NCBI GenBank assembly: GCA_964423675.1 | Contig: CAYRFP010000002.1 | Span: 8,728 to 72,727 of the forward strand | Source of the DNA: an uncultured Oscillospiraceae bacterium | GTDB lineage: Bacteria; Bacillota; Clostridia; Christensenellales; Aristaeellaceae | Reading direction: 5' to 3' | Length of the DNA stretch: 64,000 nucleotides | In this document: piece by piece, positions 37,673-46,829 of the stretch | Position numbering within the stretch: the first letter of the stretch is position 1 | Layout: every line of letters begins with the position of its first letter | Notes under the pieces: generated by a model | Seen by the model: the letters and a program-made list of their open reading frames with translations, nothing else | Database searches by the model: none | What the model was told of the DNA's origin: nothing | Translations under genes and position numbers: made by a program

Positions 37673-38485
37673 TCAGACGGGGAAAAGGTTCAGCAACAAA
37701 TAAACATACATCACCAGCGTGGACCAATACACGCTGTCCAGCCGATCCATCATGCCGCCGTGACCGGGGAAGATGGAGCCGTAATCCTTCACGCCACAAT
37801 GGCGCTTAATCAGGGATGCGAACAGATCGCCCAGCTGCCCAGCCAGACCGCCCAGCACACCTAGCACGATGAAATGCCACAGGGGGGGCATCTTGGCAAA
37901 ACAGGAGAAAACGCCGCACATGAGCATAGCGAACAACACGCTTCCCATCAGGCCGGCCAGCGAACCTTCTACGGATTTGTTGGGGCTCACCGCCGGACAC
38001 AGCTTCCGGACGCCAAACCTGCTGCCGATAAAGTAAGCTGCCGTATCGCCCACCAGGGGCACACCAAAGGCCAGAAGCGCCAGCAGCAGCTGATGCACCC
38101 GATCCGGGGCTTTCATCAGGCCCAGCATGCACATGCCCGGCAGCAACACACAAAACAGCGGCAGCACCGACATCAGCAGGTCTTCCAGCCGCGGCTCAGA
38201 CTGGAACAACACCATCATCGCTACCAGCATACATGCCCCTGCTACCAGCGAAAACAGCGGCGAAACGCTGCCGGACATGGCAAACAGCGGTACTGATAAA
38301 ACCAGACAAAGCCAGCTGGGCCATTGCACTGGCCGGTGCCCTGCTGCGCTCATGGCGCGATAAACTTCGTACATGGATACGCAGATGGAAGCCATATATA
38401 AAACCGAAAAGACCCAGCCGCCCATAGCCAACGCAAAGGCCAGTACAGCAACTAGACAGACCCCGGTGATGATTCTGGTCATCAT
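37673..38485 (-). CDS. cdsA: Phosphatidate cytidylyltransferase
   Basis: 270 aa and polytopic. The CTP-transferase signature is SLIKRHCGVKDYGSIFPGHGGMMDRLDS. Confidence 0.9.
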   Translation of the reverse strand: MMTRIITGVCLVAVLAFALAMGGWVFSVLYMASICVSMYEVYRAMSAAGHRPVQWPSWLCLVLSVPLFAMSGSVSPLFSLVAGACMLVAMMVLFQSEPRLEDLLMSVLPLFCVLLPGMCMLGLMKAPDRVHQLLLALLAFGVPLVGDTAAYFIGSRFGVRKLCPAVSPNKSVEGSLAGLMGSVLFAMLMCGVFSCFAKMPPLWHFIVLGVLGGLAGQLGDLFASLIKRHCGVKDYGSIFPGHGGMMDRLDSVYWSTLVMYVYLLLNLFPV

Positions 38486-39198
38486 TTGTTTCTTCCTCCA
38501 AACCGGCGATCCCGGCGAGCAAATTCTTCCAGCGCCCGGTGATAATCCGTCAGGCCAAAATCTGGCCAGAGGACGGCGGGAAATTCAAATTCCGCATAAG
38601 CGCATTGATACAGCAGGAAATTGCTCAGTCGCATTTCTCCGCTGGTTCGGATCAACAGATCTACATCCGGCAAATCATAAGTATATAATTCCCGAGCCAG
38701 ACGGGTTTCATCAATTTCTTCCGGCTTTATTTCTCCAGATGCCGCCTGCCGTGCCAGACGTTGCGTTGCCCGCACCAATTCGGCTCGGCCGCCGTAATTC
38801 AAAGCGATGTTCAGCTTGAGCCCAGTGTTTTTCTGGGTTCTGTTTTCTGCCTCCGTCACGGACAGCCGCTGCTTTTCCGGCAGGCCGTCTTTATCGCCCA
38901 GGATGCGGATGCAAACGTTTTTCTGATTCAGTTCGTCGATCTCCGAAGAAAAGAATTCCAGCAGCAGCCCCATGAGGGCGTTCACTTCCTGGGGATCACG
39001 CTTCCAGTTTTCTGTGGAGAAGGCATACAAAGATAAAGCCTCGATCTTCAGATCGCTGCTTTCGCGGATAATGGCGCGCAGGGCTTCCACGCCCTTGCGA
39101 TGCCCCAGCGCCACCTGAAGGGCATGCTGCTTCGCCCATCGGCCATTGCCATCCATAATAATGGCCACATGCCGGGGCAAACGGGATAACTCGCTCAT
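38482..39198 (-). CDS. uppS: Isoprenyl transferase (undecaprenyl-diphosphate synthase)
   Basis: The start is reset to ATG 39198, giving MSELSRLPRHVAIIMDGNGRWAKQH. Also present are FSTENWKRD, RTSGEMRLSNFLL and RRFGG. The track ORF extends to 39492 but that stretch overlaps frr. Confidence 0.95.
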   Translation of the reverse strand: MSELSRLPRHVAIIMDGNGRWAKQHALQVALGHRKGVEALRAIIRESSDLKIEALSLYAFSTENWKRDPQEVNALMGLLLEFFSSEIDELNQKNVCIRILGDKDGLPEKQRLSVTEAENRTQKNTGLKLNIALNYGGRAELVRATQRLARQAASGEIKPEEIDETRLARELYTYDLPDVDLLIRTSGEMRLSNFLLYQCAYAEFEFPAVLWPDFGLTDYHRALEEFARRDRRFGGRNK

Positions 39199-39407
39199 GG
39201 CTCCTCTTTTCCTGCTTCCCGCGGCGCACCGTCCAGAAACCGCGCCGCAATCCATTGCCCCTGTCTGCATAATATCACCCGGGGTGTGCCCTCCTGCCGC
39301 GCTTGTCCGGAGCGGACAGGCGCGGCGGAAAACACCACCTGGGGCGTTTGCTCCTGCGGAAGAGAGGCCAGCGCCTCCTCCAGGGGACGGCCTAAAGCGC
39401 GCTGCAT
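39195..39407 (-). CDS. Candidate 70-aa ORF translationally coupled between frr and uppS
   Basis: Its ATG overlaps the frr stop (TGATG), with GGAGG 4 nt upstream. Its TGA overlaps the uppS ATG (ATGA). Third codon positions are G/C-rich like neighbouring genes. I recognise no family. Confidence 0.3.
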   Translation of the reverse strand: MQRALGRPLEEALASLPQEQTPQVVFSAAPVRSGQARQEGTPRVILCRQGQWIAARFLDGAPREAGKEEP

Positions 39408-39964
39408 CAGACCTCCATGATCTCCTTTTCCTTTTCGGAAGCGATCTTATCAATTTCTTTGATCTGGCTGTCGGTGAGTTTTTGCATTTCATCCTCGGCC
39501 TTGCGCTGATCGTCCTCCGTGATGGCGGAATCCTTCTTCAGCTTTTTGAGCTGCTCCATCGCATCCCGGCGAGCGCCGCGAACGGCCACCTTGGCATCCT
39601 CTGCGCCCTTGCGCACCATCTTGGTCAGTTCCTTGCGGCGTTCCTCGTTCAGTTCGGGTACAACCAGCCGGATCAGCTTGCCATCGTTGCTGGGGTTCAT
39701 GCCCAGATCGCTTTTCTGGATGGCCTTTTCCACCAGAGGAATTGCTTTGGGATCCCACAGGGAGATGGTCAGCAGACGGGGTTCCGGGCTGCTGATATTG
39801 CCCATTTGCTTAAGCGGAGTGGCCGTGCCATAATAGTCTACCGTGATTCGATCCAGAATCTGAGGATTGGCCCGGCCGGCACGCAGGGACAGCATGTCCC
39901 GCTGATAGAATTCCTTGGTTTTCTCCATTTTTTCCTTGGCTGCGGTGATAACAGAACGATACAT
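39407..39964 (-). CDS. frr: Ribosome recycling factor
   Basis: 185 aa with RAGRANPQILDRITVDYYGTATPLKQMGNIS, IPELNEERRKEL and RRDAMEQLKK. Confidence 0.95.
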   Translation of the reverse strand: MYRSVITAAKEKMEKTKEFYQRDMLSLRAGRANPQILDRITVDYYGTATPLKQMGNISSPEPRLLTISLWDPKAIPLVEKAIQKSDLGMNPSNDGKLIRLVVPELNEERRKELTKMVRKGAEDAKVAVRGARRDAMEQLKKLKKDSAITEDDQRKAEDEMQKLTDSQIKEIDKIASEKEKEIMEV

Positions 39965-40037: not shown

Positions 40038-41228
40038 TTATTTCTGCCGTGTTTTTTCATGATATTCGAAATAATCCCGGTCAAAGTGGATCACGCACCG
40101 ATAGCGGGCGTCCAGGGTGCGGGCGTGGGCACAGATGCCGTCCTGCAATGCATCCAGCTGCTGTGCATGGGGCGGCAGCAGCACATCGAAAACCAGATTG
40201 ATATTCTTATCCCCAGGAACCCGCCGGAAATCATGCAGCTTCAGCGGCGGCGTAAGAGAAGAAAGATAATCCGCCATCTGTTTGCGGGCGGTTTCGGTTT
40301 TCTCATCGTGGGTGAGGATGGGATCCATATGGATGCAAATCGGAATATGAAGCTTTTGCGAGATCTCCCGTTCGGCGCTGTCGATCACCTCATGAATGGC
40401 AACCAAATCGCTGTCTGCCGCTACCTCCGCGTGCACGGACGCCATGGATCGGCCAGGGCCGTAATCATGCAGCACCAGATCATGTGCGCCAAGAATGCCT
40501 GGATAATGCAGCAGAAGCTCCAAAATCTGCTGGCCCTTTTCTCTGTCCGGCGTGCTGCCCAGCAGTCGGGAAACTGTGTCCCGCAGCACCTCGAAGGCTG
40601 CTTTAAGCACCAGCAGGGAAACCAGCGAGCCCACGTATCCATCAATAGGCCAGTTGAAAATCAGCGTGACCACTGTGGAAAATACCACGGCGCCTGTGGC
40701 CAGCACATCGCTTAGGCTATCCTGGGCTGCGGCCAGCAGGGTGGGGTTATCGGTCTTGCGGCCCAGCACACTATAAAAGCGCCACATCCACAGCTTTACC
40801 AGCACGCCCGCCGCTAAAATGCCTACCATCAGCCAGGAGAAGGACGCAGCTTCGGGATGCAGGATGCCCTCCACGCCGGATTTGAGCAGTTCCAGGCCGA
40901 ACACGCCGATAAGAATGCCCACGCCCAGAGCTCCCAGATACTCAACCCGCCCATGCCCGAAGGGATGCTCATCATCCTGGGGCTTTTGCGCCATGTGTAC
41001 GGCGATCAGGGCAATCAGGCTGCCACCCGCATCGGACAGATTGTTTACACCGTCCGCCGTTATGGCGACAGAGCCGCTGAGAAAACCAAGCAGAATCTTG
41101 GCCAGAGCCAGCAGCAGGTTTAGCGCCATGCCCGTTACGGAGCCCAGCATGCCGTAGGCTTCCCGGACATGCTGATCCTTCACGTTTTCCGGATCCCTGA
41201 TCCATCGGCGAATCAAAAATTGAATCAT
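40038..41228 (-). CDS. Cation diffusion facilitator (CDF) family divalent-metal efflux transporter
   Basis: 396 aa with six TM helices. AITADGVNNLSDAGGS and DDEHPFGHGRVEYL are present. A C-terminal cytoplasmic domain follows. SD GAAGGAGAG. Confidence 0.9.
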   Translation of the reverse strand: MIQFLIRRWIRDPENVKDQHVREAYGMLGSVTGMALNLLLALAKILLGFLSGSVAITADGVNNLSDAGGSLIALIAVHMAQKPQDDEHPFGHGRVEYLGALGVGILIGVFGLELLKSGVEGILHPEAASFSWLMVGILAAGVLVKLWMWRFYSVLGRKTDNPTLLAAAQDSLSDVLATGAVVFSTVVTLIFNWPIDGYVGSLVSLLVLKAAFEVLRDTVSRLLGSTPDREKGQQILELLLHYPGILGAHDLVLHDYGPGRSMASVHAEVAADSDLVAIHEVIDSAEREISQKLHIPICIHMDPILTHDEKTETARKQMADYLSSLTPPLKLHDFRRVPGDKNINLVFDVLLPPHAQQLDALQDGICAHARTLDARYRCVIHFDRDYFEYHEKTRQK

Positions 41229-41307
41229 TCCGTTTCTCTCCTTCTTGCCGCGCGCATTGCTTTCTTTACCCTATTGCGGCAAGCCTTGCGATTATGCACA
41301 ACATAAT

Positions 41308-41336
41308 ATTTTACCATACTTTTTTCCTGGGTGCAA
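41308..41336 (-). promoter_or_regulatory. Candidate sigma-A promoter for the CDF transporter gene
   Basis: The minus strand reads TTGCAC (41336-41331), 17 nt, TAAAAT (41313-41308), preceded by TGG (extended -10). Confidence 0.45.
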
Positions 41337-41341
41337 CCAGG

Positions 41342-41370
41342 TTGCGCCGACAGGCAGGGGATGATATAAT
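41342..41370 (+). promoter_or_regulatory. Candidate sigma-A promoter for the GTPase-NYN gene
   Basis: TTGCGC (41342-41347), 17 nt, TATAAT (41365-41370). It sits back-to-back with the CDF promoter. Confidence 0.45.
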
Positions 41371-41406
41371 GGGAACGATAATTGTAAGCAAAGGATGAGG
41401 ATGCCC

Positions 41407-44043
41407 ATGGAAAAGGCGGCGCTGACGGTGGGGCTGCTGGCCCACGTGGATGCGGGAAAAACCACCTTATCAGAGGCCCTGCTCTATACCGCCGGGGCGG
41501 TTCGGAAGCTGGGGCGCGTGGATCATCGGGATGCGTTTCTGGATACCGATGCGCAGGAGCGGGAGCGGGGCATTACTATCTTTTCCAAGCAGGCGCGGCT
41601 TTCCTGGCATGGGCGGGAAATCGCGCTGATGGACACTCCGGGTCACGTAGATTTTTCCGGCGAGATGGAACGGACGCTGAGTGTGCTGGATTGTGCTGTG
41701 CTGGTTATCAGCGGGGCAGATGGCGTGCAGGCGCATACGCGTACCCTGTGGCGGCTGCTGGAACGCTATCAGATTCCCTGCTTTTTATTTGTGAATAAAA
41801 TGGATCAACCAGGTGCAAATCGGGAGGCTTTGTGCGCGGAATTACAGCAAAAGCTACAGGATGGCTGCGTAGATTTTCTGGCTCCAGACGCTACGGAGCA
41901 GATGGCAACGGGCAGTGAAAACGCACTGAATCATTTTCTGGAAACGGGAGAAATTCCACAGCCTGAGGTAACGCAATTGATTGCGTCCCGTCGCATTTTT
42001 CCCTGCTTTTTCGGAGCGGCGCTGCGGCTGGACGGGGTGGACGCGCTGCTGAACGCTTTGGCAGATTACGGGCCCTGTCCGTCTTATGCGGATTTATTTG
42101 GCGCGCGAGTTTATAAAATTGCCCGGGATCCTCAGGGAGCGCGGCTGACGTATCTGAAAATAACCGGGGGTTGCCTGCATGTGCGCGATAGCCTGAATAA
42201 TCGTTCGCAAGGGCTTTCTCCTGAAAATACTTGGGAAGAAAAGATCAATCAGATTCGCCTGTATTCCGGCGGGAAATTCCAGACGGTGGAGCAAGCCGGA
42301 GCGGGGACGATCTGCGCCGTAACGGGACTGAACCACACCAGAATCGGCGATGGATTGGGCGCGGAAAAAACTGCGCCGGAGCCGATGCTTACCCCGGTGT
42401 TTACTTATCAGGTGCTGCTGCCGCAGGGAACGGATGCTCATGCCGCTCTGCAAAAGCTTCGGCAATTGGAAGAAGAAGAACCACAGCTGCATGTGGTTTG
42501 GCGGGAGAGGCTGCGGGAAATTCATGTGCAGCTGATGGGCGAGGTACAGCTGGAAATTTTGGGTCGGTTGTTGCAGGATCGGTTTGGGCTATCTGTTCAG
42601 TTTGGTGCGGGCAGCATTCTTTATCGTGAGACGATTGAAAATGCGGTAGAGGGCGTGGGGCATTATGAGCCTCTGCGGCATTATGCTGAGGTGCATCTTA
42701 TGCTGGAACCTGGGCCCCGGGGCAGCGGGCTGCGCTTTGCCTCCGCCTGTTCGGAGGATGCGCTGGATCGAAATTGGCAGCGGTTGATTCTGACGCACCT
42801 GGCGGAAAAACAGCATCTGGGTGTGCTGACCGGATCGCCTGTTACGGATATGAAGATCACGTTGCTTGCTGGACGGGCGCATCTAAAACATACCGAGGGT
42901 GGCGATTTTCGTCAGGCAACCTATCGGGCGCTTCGTCAGGGGCTGATGCAGGCTCGAAGCGTGGTGCTGGAGCCATGGTATGATTTGCAGCTGGAACTTC
43001 CCGCGGAGGGACTGGGCCGCGCCATGAACGATATTCAGCAAATGGGCGGCTCCTTTGAAACACCGGAAAATGTGGGCGACGAAGTGATTCTGCGCGCCAC
43101 AGCGCCTGTGGCCCGGACCCGACATTATGCCCGGGAACTGGCCGCCTATACCCATGGAAAAGGGCGAATGGCCTGTTCTCTTCGGGGCTATGCACCCTGC
43201 CAGGAGCAGGAGCGGCTTGTATCCGCAATGGGCTATGATCCGGAGAGGGATGCGGAAAACACGGCGGATTCGGTGTTTTGCGCCCATGGGGCGGGATTTG
43301 TGGTTAAGTGGAACCAGGTGCGGGAATATATGCATGTTCAAACTGGCTTTGGCCAGGAACGCCAGGAGCAGGCAGATGCGCCTGCTCCCGTTCGCCGAGC
43401 CTATACAGGAACGTTGGAAGAAGACAAAGAACTGATGGCGATCTTTGAACGTACCTATGGTCCGATTCGGCCTCGGTCGTTTCGCCCAGTGGCTCCGTCC
43501 GCACCAACGCCGGTGGAGACGGTGTATATTCCCCCGGAGCAGGAATTTCTGCTGGTGGATGGATACAACATCATCTTTGCCTGGGATGATTTGAAGGCAG
43601 CAGCCAAAACCGGGCTGAGCCATGCCAGGCAAATGCTGATGGATATTCTGTGTAATTATCAGGGAGTGCGGCCATGCCAACTGATTCTGGTGTTTGACGC
43701 ATATAAGGTGTCCAATAATCCGGGCAGGGCAGAAAAATATAACAATATTTCCGTGGTTTATACCAAGGAAGCGGAAACGGCAGATAACTATATCGAAAAG
43801 GCCACTTATAAACTGGGCAAAAACAGCAGAGTGCGGGTGGCCACATCGGACGGGCTGGAACAAATGATTATTTTGGGTCATGGCGCGCTGCGGGTTTCGG
43901 CAAAGGAATTCCGCCGGGAGGTGGAGGCGGCGAATGTGGAGATTCGGGCCATTATGGCGGCGTATAATACGCTGCCGGTCTCCAATCCCGCATTGGAACG
44001 CGCGCTTTGGGATGCGCTGGAAAAAAAGAAGGCGAAGCATTAA
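41407..44043 (+). CDS. TetM/EF-G-family translational GTPase fused to a C-terminal Rae1/YacP-type NYN ribonuclease domain
   Basis: I prefer the start at ATG 41407 (MEKAALTVGLLAHVDAGKTT; the track start is 41395). GTPase motifs are AHVDAGKT, RGITI, DTPGH and NKMD. The C-terminal ~150 aa read LLVDGYNIIFAW..LVFDAY..VVYTKEAETADNYIEK..VATSDGLEQMIILGHGALRVSAKEF, which is YacP/Rae1-like. Confidence 0.85.
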   Translation: MEKAALTVGLLAHVDAGKTTLSEALLYTAGAVRKLGRVDHRDAFLDTDAQERERGITIFSKQARLSWHGREIALMDTPGHVDFSGEMERTLSVLDCAVLVISGADGVQAHTRTLWRLLERYQIPCFLFVNKMDQPGANREALCAELQQKLQDGCVDFLAPDATEQMATGSENALNHFLETGEIPQPEVTQLIASRRIFPCFFGAALRLDGVDALLNALADYGPCPSYADLFGARVYKIARDPQGARLTYLKITGGCLHVRDSLNNRSQGLSPENTWEEKINQIRLYSGGKFQTVEQAGAGTICAVTGLNHTRIGDGLGAEKTAPEPMLTPVFTYQVLLPQGTDAHAALQKLRQLEEEEPQLHVVWRERLREIHVQLMGEVQLEILGRLLQDRFGLSVQFGAGSILYRETIENAVEGVGHYEPLRHYAEVHLMLEPGPRGSGLRFASACSEDALDRNWQRLILTHLAEKQHLGVLTGSPVTDMKITLLAGRAHLKHTEGGDFRQATYRALRQGLMQARSVVLEPWYDLQLELPAEGLGRAMNDIQQMGGSFETPENVGDEVILRATAPVARTRHYARELAAYTHGKGRMACSLRGYAPCQEQERLVSAMGYDPERDAENTADSVFCAHGAGFVVKWNQVREYMHVQTGFGQERQEQADAPAPVRRAYTGTLEEDKELMAIFERTYGPIRPRSFRPVAPSAPTPVETVYIPPEQEFLLVDGYNIIFAWDDLKAAAKTGLSHARQMLMDILCNYQGVRPCQLILVFDAYKVSNNPGRAEKYNNISVVYTKEAETADNYIEKATYKLGKNSRVRVATSDGLEQMIILGHGALRVSAKEFRREVEAANVEIRAIMAAYNTLPVSNPALERALWDALEKKKAKH

Positions 44044-44175
44044 AAGGAAAAGTTTCAGCAAAAAGCGTAGCCTGTCAAAAAAGTTAAAAGACGAGAAGCG
44101 GGCGTGGCGCTTTTTTCGCTCCCTGAGTTTCTGATCCCAAAGCGGTGAATTTCCTGATAAATCACTGCAAAATCC

Positions 44176-44204
44176 TTGACTTTTTCAAGAAAATATGCTA
44201 CCAT
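44176..44204 (+). promoter_or_regulatory. Candidate sigma-A promoter for rplU-prp-rpmA
   Basis: TTGACT (44176-44181), 17 nt, TACCAT (44199-44204), preceded by TGC. A ~115-nt leader separates it from the rplU ATG. Confidence 0.5.
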
Positions 44205-44324
44205 TCTTCGGTAAGCCGCTCGGGAGGGGCTTCTTAAATGCGGAAACGCTGCCCCGTGGCTGAAATATGCTATTCTTTCCTTCTAAGATTGTCCCGGCGA
44301 GTATGAAAACAGGAGGTGCTGCCC

Positions 44325-44630
44325 ATGTACGCGATTATTGCGACCGGCGGCAAACAGTACCGTGTCTCGGAGGGAGACACCATCTACATCGAGAAGCTCG
44401 AAAACGAAGTTGGCGACGTGGTTTCTTTCCCCGTCATGATGCTCTCTGGCGAGACCATTGAAGTGGGCTCTCCCTATATCGAGGGCGCGACCGTGACTGG
44501 CAAGATCGTGCGCCATGGCAAGGGCGAAAAGATCGTTGTGTTCAAGTACAAGAGCAAGAAGAATTATCGCCGCAAGGCTGGCCATCGTCAGCCCTTCACT
44601 CAGGTGGAAATCACCGGCGTGAACGCCTGA
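44325..44630 (+). CDS. rplU: 50S ribosomal protein L21
   Basis: [25 protein letters not shown]... SD AGGAGG lies 8 nt upstream of ATG 44325. The track start at 44316 is a GTG. Confidence 0.95.
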
Positions 44631-45265: not shown

Positions 45266-45280
45266 TTCAGGAAACCATGA

Positions 45281-45317
45281 GGAGCCGTTTCTTCGAAGCG
45301 GCTCCTTTTCTTATTTT
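45281..45317 (+). terminator. Rho-independent terminator of the L21-Prp-L27 operon
   Basis: GGAGCCGTTTC TTC GAAGCGGCTCC forms an 11-bp stem with one G-U pair, followed by TTTTCTTATTTT. Confidence 0.85.
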
Positions 45318-45339
45318 GTGCGCCGATAAGGAGACATGT

Positions 45340-46422
45340 ATGAAGCATCTGGAAACGGACAGGCTGCAGCTGCGCCCATTTACATGGGAGGATTATCCCC
45401 TGATCCTTGCGATTTCCTCTGACCCGGACACGGTGAAATATTTGTACTATTGGGGTCGCCCCGGCATGACGCCGGATCAGGATGCGCAGCGCTTTTTGCG
45501 CTATGCTATTGGCGCATATGAAAAAACGCCAGTGAAATCCATGGAATATGCGCTGGTGCGCAAGGCGGATAATCAGCCGATCGGCGACGGCAGCATTGAA
45601 TGGCTGGACGATGGGTTTTCCGCGGAAATCGGCTGGATTCTTTTGCCGCAGTATCGTGGCCAGGGCTATGCCACTGAAATGGCCAAGGAATTAATGCGTT
45701 ACGGCTTTGAGGAGCTGGGCGCTGAGCGGATCATCGCCCATTGCGATGCGAAAAATGCGCCATCCTACCGGGTGATGGAGCGACTGGGCATGCGCCGGGA
45801 AGGCGTGGCGAAACAGGTACGCCCTGCAAAAATAATGGGCGGCAGGCGCGGTGACGAATGCACCTACGCTATTTTGAAAGAGGAATGGGAGACACAGAAA
45901 AAGCTACAGGAGGTGCTGGCGTTTCCCTGGAATTTTCAAGGTTTTATGACGCTGCCTGAACTGACGGACGGCGAACTTCGGCTGATCTGCGCGAAGAAAC
46001 GCCCGCAGGACGGAATTGATCCCACAGTTTCCTCCTATTTCTTTCTGATCACCAAAGGCGGCGAGACCATTGGCAGCATCGATTTGCGAATTGGCTATAC
46101 TCCGCTGCTTTTTTATGCAGGCAATGTCGGCTATGATATTCTCGAATCTCAGCGTGGGCATGGATATGCGGGCAAGGCGTGCCGACTGCTTTGGCCAGTT
46201 TTGCGGTATCATGGCATGCGCTGCGCCCTGATAACAAACGATACGGATAACGCCCCATCTCGGCGCGTCTGCGAAAAGCTGGGAGCACGGCTGCTATGCC
46301 AGGCGGATGTGCCGGAAACAATGCCTATGTATAATCATGGGCTGCATCGCGCCAACATTTTTGTGATGGAGGAAGAAACGGCAGAATGCAGATCATCGTG
46401 GAAAAAAGCCAACGGCAATTGA
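45340..46422 (+). CDS. Tandem GNAT-family N-acetyltransferase (RimJ/RimL-like N-terminal module plus second GNAT module)
   Basis: Start at ATG 45340 (SD AAGGAGA). The first module shows ETDRLQLRPFTWEDY...QYRGQGYATE..A.NAPSYRVMERLGM. The second module shows GNVGYDILESQRGHGYAGKA...DNAPSRRVCEKLGA. Confidence 0.8.
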   Translation: MKHLETDRLQLRPFTWEDYPLILAISSDPDTVKYLYYWGRPGMTPDQDAQRFLRYAIGAYEKTPVKSMEYALVRKADNQPIGDGSIEWLDDGFSAEIGWILLPQYRGQGYATEMAKELMRYGFEELGAERIIAHCDAKNAPSYRVMERLGMRREGVAKQVRPAKIMGGRRGDECTYAILKEEWETQKKLQEVLAFPWNFQGFMTLPELTDGELRLICAKKRPQDGIDPTVSSYFFLITKGGETIGSIDLRIGYTPLLFYAGNVGYDILESQRGHGYAGKACRLLWPVLRYHGMRCALITNDTDNAPSRRVCEKLGARLLCQADVPETMPMYNHGLHRANIFVMEEETAECRSSWKKANGN

Positions 46423-46829
46423 CCCTGCTGGATGCGATGGGCCGTTGTCTGCTCCAATGCCCCATTGCATTGGGAAAAAATCCGGTTGGGCCGAAGGAGC
46501 GGGAAGGAGACGGAAAAACGCCGGAGGGACGCTATTTCGTCTGCCTGAAGAAGCAGGGAAAGTTTGGCCCGGCGCTTGGCGTTAACTATCCCAGCACAGC
46601 GGATGCGCTGCGCCTGAATGCGGATGAAGCGTTGCTCTCCTGCCTTCGCCTCCGCGAAGCGGCGGGGCAGCGGCCGCCCTGGGGCACTGCCCTAGGCGGC
46701 GAAATTTATATTCATGGCGGCGGAACAAAGGAAGATTGGACAGCGGGCTGCATCGCTCTGCCAGACGAACAGGCGCTGCTGCTTTATCAGCTAACACCCC
46801 TGGGAACGCCCATTGAGATTCGGCCGTAA
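46386..46829 (+). CDS. L,D-transpeptidase (YkuD) domain protein
   Basis: 147 aa. KTPEGRYFV...IYIHGG......TAGCIALPDEQ carries the His/Cys catalytic motif HG...GC. It overlaps the end of the GNAT gene by 37 nt. Confidence 0.8.
   Translation: MQIIVEKSQRQLTLLDAMGRCLLQCPIALGKNPVGPKEREGDGKTPEGRYFVCLKKQGKFGPALGVNYPSTADALRLNADEALLSCLRLREAAGQRPPWGTALGGEIYIHGGGTKEDWTAGCIALPDEQALLLYQLTPLGTPIEIRP

Follow-up and report, generated by a model that had tools for sequence, protein, structure and literature searches.

Fusions of a Tet-type translational GTPase (trGTPase) to an NYN_YacP nuclease domain have been reported from Clostridia. Atkinson 2015 (BMC Genomics, Additional file 8; PMC4342817) gave the sequences of Tet + NYN_YacP fusions from ten Clostridia genomes, and the set covers R. 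albus, E. eligens, E. rectale, B. proteoclasticus, C. cellulolyticum, C. lentocellum, C. phytofermentans, C. thermocellum, and D. hafniense (PMC4342817). Matelska et al. 2017 (NAR; PMC5499597) reported that TetM-NYN_YacP fusions occur in some Clostridia, with a role that they regarded as unclear. Neither paper ties the fusion to the biology of Rae1, and the recent Rae1 papers do not mention it. The 64-kb stretch of DNA analyzed here (the window), from an uncultured Oscillospirales-type gut bacterium, encodes a further orthologue of this published family. The architecture is not new and has been known since 2015/2017. The published clostridial fusions are built identically, from EF-G/Tet-like domains I-V, a linker, and NYN_YacP; they came from about ten species then, compared with at least 587 species genomes now. 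The published E. rectale member (locus L082) has 933 amino acids (aa) and is 53.5% identical over the GTPase part.

The two halves have well-described relatives. In solved complexes, EF-G and Tet factors place their G domain on the sarcin-ricin loop and their domain IV in the A site of the 30S subunit. Rae1 (YacP) is an mRNA endonuclease that depends on translation; it cuts 12 nucleotides (nt) upstream of the stalled ribosome's A site (PMC12407103) and generates substrates for transfer-messenger RNA (tmRNA) on collided ribosomes (PMC13622287). Its discoverers gave up a model of docking in the A site and now place the cut behind the stalled ribosome, at its tail end (PMC12407103). A preliminary description of the window, read from its letters, had taken Rae1 to cut in the A site; this was a 2017 hypothesis and has been superseded by the cut 12 nt upstream. 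The mode of ribosome recognition by Rae1 is elusive because the association is transient, and no structure of ribosome-bound Rae1 exists.

The gene in the window joins both activities in one polypeptide.

41407-44043, forward strand: whole coding sequence, 878 aa plus stop, trGTPase-Rae1 fusion protein; in-frame ATGs also at 41395 and 41401.

The single frame of about 878 aa that had been proposed is indeed uninterrupted. Counted from the first ATG, it spans 41395-44043 (forward strand) and 882 aa; motifs and features are numbered below on the 878-aa protein, Pfam coordinates on the 882-aa open reading frame (ORF). Both halves give strong, full-length matches, and the identity of both parts is near certain. 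The N-terminal half takes on the domain order of an elongation factor.

41422-42069, forward strand: G domain, aa 6-221, with G1 AHVDAGKT, switch I RGITI, G3 DTPGH including the catalytic His80, G4 NKMD, and a short Tet-like G' insert.
42103-42357, forward strand: domain II, aa 233-317 (EF-G_D2), a β-barrel in the AlphaFold model.
42391-42606, forward strand: domain III, aa 329-400; EFG_III is sub-threshold, and the assignment is backed by the full-length EF-G alignment and Foldseek.
42613-42954, forward strand: domain IV, aa 403-516 (EFG_IV), the A-site-probing domain.
42964-43209, forward strand: domain V, aa 520-601 (EFG_C).

Pfam places GTP_EFTU at residues 10-225 (E=1.8e-52), EF-G_D2 at 237-321 (E=1.5e-8), EFG_IV at 407-520 (E=1.9e-18), and EFG_C at 524-605 (E=7.2e-17), all above cut-off; EFG_III (333-404) stays slightly under its gathering score, with 26.3 bits against 27. 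All four GTPase motifs that had been read in the first ~640 aa are present, AHVDAGKT at 12-19, RGITI at 54-58, DTPGH at 76-80, and NKMD at 130-133. Against solved structures, the N-terminal 640 aa match EF-G over the full length at ~1e-77 and Tet(M)/Tet(O) at ~1e-71. The AlphaFold2 model, built from a 58-sequence alignment, has a mean predicted local distance difference test (pLDDT) score of 80.9 and consists of two confident modules and a disordered linker. Foldseek with this model recovers an EF-G-like body, the top matches being ribosome-bound and free EF-G (E ~1e-55). The conservation counts out of 141 refer to fusion representatives at 50% identity, aligned with MAFFT. D15, G17, K18, G55, T57, the D76-T77-P78-G79 stretch, and D133 are found in every one of them (141/141), H80 and T19 in 140/141, and I56 in 139/141. 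The N-terminal ~645 aa thus read as a complete, catalytically competent trGTPase of the EF-G/EF2 family.

Domain V is followed by an element that is specific to the family.

43198-43341, forward strand: family-specific extension after domain V, aa ~598-645; helix, β-hairpin, helix; pLDDT 72-89.

In the AlphaFold model the extension is made of a helix (601-608), a hairpin (622-633), and a second helix (635-641). Y610, D615, S622, F624, and G628 are near-invariant, and H643 is also listed as conserved. C598, C625, H627, and H643 recur in 76-92% of sequences and could, speculatively, form a metal (zinc) site. The extension of ~45 aa is found in fused and unfused family members and is absent from Tet(M/O/W) and EF-G; Pfam has no match for it.

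Atkinson 2015 suggested that such fusions are tetracycline protection proteins with an accessory RNase, and the comparison with the tetracycline ribosomal protection proteins (RPPs) bears directly on this reading. Tet(M) and Tet(O) (PDB 3J9Y, 3J25, 4V6V) resemble the GTPase half as five-domain EF-G paralogues with a short G' insert that align collinearly and form the sister clade. The collinear alignment pairs fusion residues 10-600 with Tet(M) 4-611, and the best NCBIfam model for the fusion is tet_protect (NF012153). The match reaches 419 bits against a cut-off of 775, however, and every Tet subtype model and every EF-G model stays far under its cut-off. The authentic RPPs Tet(B(P)), Tet(O), Tet(W), Tet(M), and Tet(S) are 29-32% identical to the fusion, compared with 25-29% for EF-G. 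Tet(M) and Tet(O) additionally differ in their loop I and loop III signatures, in the C-terminal extension (the RPP C-terminal helix is replaced in the fusion by the different 45-aa element), and in lacking the extra NYN domain.

The tip loops of domain IV separate the families. The fusion family carries the signatures GH[FY]EPLRHYAEV (418-429) and G[RK]AHxKHTEGGDFR (489-502), which are near-invariant in the 141 fusions and present in unfused relatives as well. The RPP domain IV loops IHIEVPPNPFWAS and YYSPVSTPADFR differ from both; Tet(M), Tet(O), and Tet(W) have in common IHIEVPPNPFWAS and YGLYYSPVSTPADFR, both of which occur in Tet(B(P)) in a slightly altered form. In loop III, Tet(M), Tet(O), and Tet(W) read YYSPVSTPADF and Tet(B(P)) reads FFSPASTPADF, whereas all fusions (141/141) read ...H.KHTEGGDF. 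This loop is key to tetracycline displacement (PMC4750697, PMC7456112); Pro509 of the Tet(M) loop, 505-LYYSPVSTP, clashes with tetracycline (PMC7456112). The RPP sequence YYSPVSTPADF, with Pro509, is missing from 141/141 fusions, and the other conserved signature stands in its place. The domain IV loop III of the fusion has the length of that of Tet(M), and Tet(M) tolerates some loop-III substitutions (PMC4750697), so a residual tetracycline-protection activity may be conceivable.

In a neighbour-joining tree, which is crude and unreliable in its internal order, fused and unfused GTPases form one clade that is sister to the RPPs. The unfused relatives (~639-660 aa) are 48-52% identical across aa 6-645 and share the domain IV signatures and the extension. 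They comprise a copy on L. salivarius megaplasmids, many chromosomal copies in Lactobacillaceae, and one adjoining ileS (P0257). The 'translation factor GTPase family protein' of L. salivarius (WP_250201203, 639 aa) belongs to the same GTPase subfamily; it differs by ending directly after the extension, without linker or NYN domain. The GTPase half therewith falls into a distinct housekeeping subfamily of the EF-G family, separate from the RPPs, which carries a Rae1 module in Clostridia.

A second distinction lies in the genomic setting. Genes for Tet(M) and Tet(O) are mobile, whereas the fusion gene is chromosomal and core, has no leader-peptide attenuator and no mobile context, and occurs in species that are normally tetracycline-susceptible unless they have acquired tet(W), tet(O), or similar genes. 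An ordinary mobile tetracycline determinant, which the preliminary description had asked to be checked for, was rejected on the score of 419 against 775 bits, the missing RPP loop III, and the chromosomal housekeeping setting. Judged by its sequence, the fusion does not count among the true tetracycline protection proteins, and the reading of Atkinson 2015 is improbable.

Public labels often follow the Tet resemblance. Fusions at L082 and L088 and in clusters P0005, P0014, P0046, and others are named 'TetM/TetW/TetO/TetS family tetracycline resistance ribosomal protection protein'. Labels of the unfused family vary between 'elongation factor G', 'GTP-binding protein', 'TetM...', and 'Tetracycline resistance protein TetM from transposon Tn916'; unfused orthologues of the GTPase part include L081 5992-7911 (the L. 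salivarius megaplasmid) and P0332-P0434. Tet labels on fusions can inflate resistome estimates from gut metagenomes and probably give rise to false tetracycline-resistance calls there. As the closest sister of the RPPs on the housekeeping side, the fused and unfused GTPases together are relevant to the origin of ribosomal protection.

The C-terminal half matches Rae1.

43543-43971, forward strand: Rae1/YacP-type NYN endoribonuclease domain (NYN_YacP), aa 713-855; pLDDT ~85-92.

Pfam NYN_YacP (PF05991) covers residues 719-858 of the same polypeptide with E=9.2e-48 and 162.8 bits against a cut-off of 24.6. When compared with solved structures, the C-terminal 194 aa have B. subtilis YacP/Rae1 as their sole match (5MQ8/5MQ9; E=1e-24, ~158 residues). 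The block-for-block correspondence that had been proposed for the last ~150 aa is confirmed by this alignment, in which the blocks LLVDGYN, VFDA, TKE.ETAD..IEK, and VATSD line up. The acidic NYN/PIN-like residues are likewise retained: D718, D764, D793, and D815 align with D7, D53, D81, and D104 of Rae1 (numbers taken from the alignment to the PDB sequences 5MQ8/5MQ9), and each is kept in 139/141 fusions. The nuclease active site therefore looks intact. Both halves are under purifying selection for catalysis, as concluded from the near-complete retention of the G1-G4 motifs and catalytic histidine (140-141/141) and of the NYN aspartates (139/141). B. subtilis Rae1 shares the NYN_YacP fold and the four acidic residues with the fusion, and by design the function is tied to the ribosome. 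The difference is that Rae1 is a free protein of ~170 aa encoded in the cysS-mrnC-rlmB-yacP-sigH cluster, whereas the fusion carries the domain at the C terminus of an 878-aa GTPase at an unrelated locus.

An NYN domain on a ribosome-directed GTPase could also act on rRNA or tRNA, in a GTPase-gated maturation, quality control, or stress turnover of ribosomes. NYN_YacP was once predicted to be an rRNA/tRNA processor, given its operon with Mini-III and rlmB (PMC5499597), and Atkinson 2015 proposed testing "rRNA RNase ability" (PMC4342817). The tether would put the nuclease near rRNA as well as mRNA, and Nob1 with eIF5B offers a loose analogy in eukaryotes. The EF-G-family paralogues BipA and LepA act in ribosome assembly. 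Rae1 is, however, the only characterized NYN_YacP member and depends on translation to cleave mRNA, and the NYN domain of the fusion shares its active site, and 38-47% identity, with stand-alone YacP proteins. The 80 related loci show no conserved linkage to ribosome-biogenesis genes either, and a role on rRNA or tRNA is considered unlikely.

The NYN domain is connected to the GTPase by a flexible segment and is followed by a short tail.

43342-43542, forward strand: flexible linker, aa 646-712 (~67 aa); pLDDT <50 at 650-668 and 682-709.
43414-43461, forward strand: linker helix, aa 670-685, semi-conserved and amphipathic, with the motif [DE]xE[LIV]xxI[FLM]x[RK]T[YF]G.
43972-44040, forward strand: variable basic helical C-terminal tail, aa 856-878, with a predicted helix at 861-877.

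Across the 141 fusions the linker has a length of 42-143 aa, with a median of 87, and abounds in E, K, R, A, and S. Its helix, at 670-684 in the AlphaFold model, is confined to fused proteins; E675 of the motif is found in 124/141 and I679 in 126/141 fusions, and the helix could dock or autoinhibit the NYN domain. The tail varies between 0 and 49 aa in the family. Of the ~70-aa low-complexity linker in the preliminary description, the length was roughly right, but the segment is not purely low-complexity as it contains the semi-conserved helix, and aa ~598-645 are a conserved folded element.

Relatives of the fusion are abundant. A word-indexed search returned >120 clusters of 61-97% identity, all 855-909 aa long and identical in their Pfam domains. 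When HMMER was run exhaustively over 1.84 billion representatives at 50% identity, ~140 of the best 150 matches were full-length fusions of 830-1156 aa, and a scan with one genome per species places relatives in at least 587 genomes. The taxa include Oscillospiraceae with Faecalibacterium prausnitzii, Lachnospiraceae (Blautia, Faecalicatena, Robinsoniella, Acetatifactor, Fusicatenibacter, Herbinix), and further Monoglobus, Agathobacter rectalis, Mogibacterium, and Gallibacter. The family is therewith widespread in dominant human gut Clostridia such as Faecalibacterium, Blautia, and Agathobacter rectalis. The fusion is a chromosomal housekeeping core gene typical of Clostridia.

Two artefacts were considered. 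A merger of two genes by an assembly error was rejected, as the GTPase and NYN halves share a frame at all 80 related loci inspected; no stop or frameshift, of the kind that the preliminary description had proposed to survey for, lies between the two parts. At one locus (L008) a late stop is located 3' of the NYN core and the halves are still in frame, and a second (L058) is likewise in frame. Carriage on plasmids or phages was rejected as well, since the 'plasmid' matches (Monoglobus, A. rectalis, Listeria, C. difficile) are chromosome fragments.

The PLSDB records concerned, NZ_OY725736/39/41 (Monoglobus), NZ_LR134402 (Listeria), and NZ_CP1496xx-CP1497xx with NZ_CP033217 (C. difficile), are chromosome pieces. 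Their NYN and GTPase matches are not evidence of plasmid carriage because the records carry secA, fusA, and rlmB. Some of these records also carry the cysS-mrnC-rlmB-yacP-sigH cluster.

The place of stand-alone yacP differs between lineages. Listeria has the canonical cysS-mrnC-rlmB-yacP-sigH cluster, and in Bacilli and C. difficile yacP and sigH follow rlmB. Monoglobus, which carries the fusion, differs from these: rlmB is followed by a TIGR00282 metallophosphoesterase gene, without yacP or sigH (L091, 3480-5044). In Vescimonas fastidiosa, a member of the Oscillospiraceae in which the fusion was not looked for, rlmB is followed by a gene for a 718-aa hypothetical protein, without yacP (L092, 3474-6414). 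The sole NYN_YacP match in the available Monoglobus chromosome pieces, an incomplete set, is the fusion, and the 64-kb window contains neither a second NYN domain nor rlmB. These observations fit a Rae1 orthologue that replaces stand-alone yacP in such lineages.

From the two halves, the fusion is proposed to be a GTPase-docked Rae1 for the rescue of stalled or collided ribosomes, a proposal for whose coupling and substrate, both inferred, the balance is about even. The fusion to a ribosome-docking GTPase fits a ribosome-coupled nuclease. In the proposed mechanism, the GTPase half would act as a docking and state-sensing module and the NYN half as the effector. The reaction would start when the GTP form docks at the factor-binding site of a stalled or collided ribosome, whose A site domain IV would probe. 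Docking would keep the tethered NYN domain at a high local concentration beside the mRNA that leaves this ribosome or a collided neighbour. Subsequently, the NYN domain would cut the mRNA as free B. subtilis Rae1 does, which would yield truncated messages for tmRNA-mediated rescue, and GTP hydrolysis on the sarcin-ricin loop would time the release of the factor. The recruitment would differ from that of free Rae1 in that the fusion would use the factor-binding site in place of whichever surface serves free Rae1.

The preliminary description had expected the fusion to bring an A-site nuclease to ribosomes under GTPase control. The A-site part does not hold: on the ribosome that bears the GTPase, this site is already filled by domain IV of the bound factor, which leaves no room there for the NYN domain. 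The tether may instead let it reach mRNA away from the decoding centre, either on the entry-channel side, adjacent to the factor site, or between the two ribosomes of a disome, where Rae1 cuts. SmrB of E. coli and Cue2 of yeast, mRNA endonucleases triggered by collisions, are functionally alike in that a nuclease is recruited to stalled or collided ribosomes at the onset of rescue, with an SMR instead of an NYN fold, and Hbs1-Dom34 is alike in function as a GTPase-delivered A-site probe. None of the three is a covalent trGTPase-nuclease fusion.

Several points weigh against a GTPase-docked Rae1 in ribosome rescue. The preferred target of Tet-type factors is a non-rotated ribosome whose A site is empty, whereas the trailing ribosome in a collision is rotated. 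Since B. subtilis Rae1 works without such a GTPase, the purpose of the GTPase may be a different one, and the existence of unfused members implies that the GTPase has a function of its own. A conserved operon partner that could lend pathway support was not found among the 80 loci. The evidence for replacement of stand-alone yacP covers one carrier of the fusion (Monoglobus) and Vescimonas, with the fusion unchecked in the latter, from incomplete records. Finally, a full-text literature search found no experimental study of the fusion or of any family member, in line with the preliminary description, which had been aware of none.

A wider and more tentative reading, doubtful as a whole, joins the fused and unfused proteins. 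The fusion would act as a bacterial machine for 'no-go decay' in a single polypeptide, the unfused Lactobacillaceae GTPase a rescue factor that works with free Rae1, and the RPPs descendants of this lineage of housekeeping rescue GTPases. The GTPase would sense the stalled or collided ribosome through the factor site and the A site and license the tethered Rae1, and GTP hydrolysis would reset the system. By Rosetta-stone logic, the existence of the fusion implies that the unfused Lactobacillaceae GTPase would partner free Rae1 in rescue.

For the question of how Rae1 finds stalled or collided ribosomes, a covalent fusion to a factor-site GTPase would provide a defined docking geometry. A trap with a GTP analogue could make cleavage complexes of the Rae1 type capturable by cryo-electron microscopy. 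The fusion gene is carried by cultured species such as C. thermocellum, C. cellulolyticum, and C. phytofermentans.

The neighbourhood of the gene in the window is of a housekeeping kind. Upstream on the minus strand lie a cation-efflux gene, frr, uppS, and cdsA; downstream follow rplU, prp, rpmA, a tandem GNAT gene, a YkuD transpeptidase gene, and an S41 peptidase gene. The GC content of the fusion gene equals that of its surroundings, and there is no mobile-element context. The adjacency to rplU-prp-rpmA that the preliminary description had pointed out is real, directly downstream, but it is not conserved (0/80 related loci), being particular to this genome, and therefore carries no functional weight; a functional link to rplU-prp-rpmA was rejected on this count. 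A relative that is 83% identical (L001) keeps the cation-efflux gene and frr upstream without the rplU adjacency. As operon partners, the strongest candidates were a MATE-type transporter gene, on either side and strand in 13/80 loci, and a GreA-like gene downstream (11/80).

The variable housekeeping neighbourhoods bear on the remaining reading, put forward in the preliminary description, of a stress or anti-phage effector that cuts RNA on ribosomes in the manner of a toxin and shuts translation down. An action of Rae1 on foreign mRNA has been a matter of speculation, and a BrnT/BrnA pair adjoins the fusion gene in A. rectalis. PADLOC, however, has no match for the fusion, no immunity or partner gene is conserved, and the relatives inspected across Clostridia are chromosomal and conserved in sequence, with native GC content. 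The role as a stress or defence effector is therewith unsupported, since the gene behaves as core housekeeping, and such a toxin-like function is highly improbable.

In Agathobacter rectalis (L082, 5325-5833), the BrnT/BrnA (CopG-type) toxin-antitoxin pair lies directly upstream in divergent orientation; the other loci inspected showed none.

The signals around the fusion gene were assigned as follows.

41342-41370, forward strand: putative sigma-70-type promoter read from the sequence, with -35 TTGCGC (41342-41347), a 17-nt spacer, and extended -10 TGaTATAAT (41362-41370).
41397-41401, forward strand: Shine-Dalgarno-like GAGGA, 5 nt 5' of the ATG at 41407.
44096-44120, forward strand: weak terminator-like hairpin followed by a T-run, 3' of the fusion stop codon.
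44176-44204, forward strand: promoter-like site before rplU, TTGACT, 17 nt, TACCAT with an upstream TG.

The start at 41407 is more likely than the one at 41395 because GAGGA lies 5 nt upstream and the closest homologs have the corresponding length; the two nearest (97% and 84% identical) are both 878 aa long. The promoter of the fusion gene at 41342-41370, proposed in the preliminary description, is plausible. Its extended -10 is perfect and its -35 weak, and a consensus promoter scan did not call the site because only 3/6 positions of the -35 match. The hairpin at 44096-44120 is no more stable than shuffled sequence (z=-0.24), which makes an intrinsic terminator after the fusion gene uncertain. 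Rfam at gathering thresholds gave no match anywhere in the 64-kb window, and at E<=1 none in the region 41200-44340, where the L21 leader was not detected. In the short 5' region of the fusion gene, neither a leader ORF nor an RNA motif was found.

Some minor observations concern the flanking genes. The spacer before rplU is 272 nt long (44044-44315), and a transcript from the promoter-like site at 44176-44204 would have a leader of ~110 nt. At E<=1, Rfam matched no family on this spacer, including the known L21-leader type, and any leader structure there would be undescribed. In the uppS ORF (38482-39492, minus strand), ~110 Ala/Gly/Arg-rich residues precede the Prenyltransf domain, which starts at residue 111; the true start of uppS is probably further downstream than listed. 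Directly after rpmA, the ORF at 45277-46422 (forward strand) encodes two tandem GNAT acetyltransferase domains, and its 3' end overlaps the ORF of the YkuD-type L,D-transpeptidase (46386-46829, forward strand) by 37 nt.

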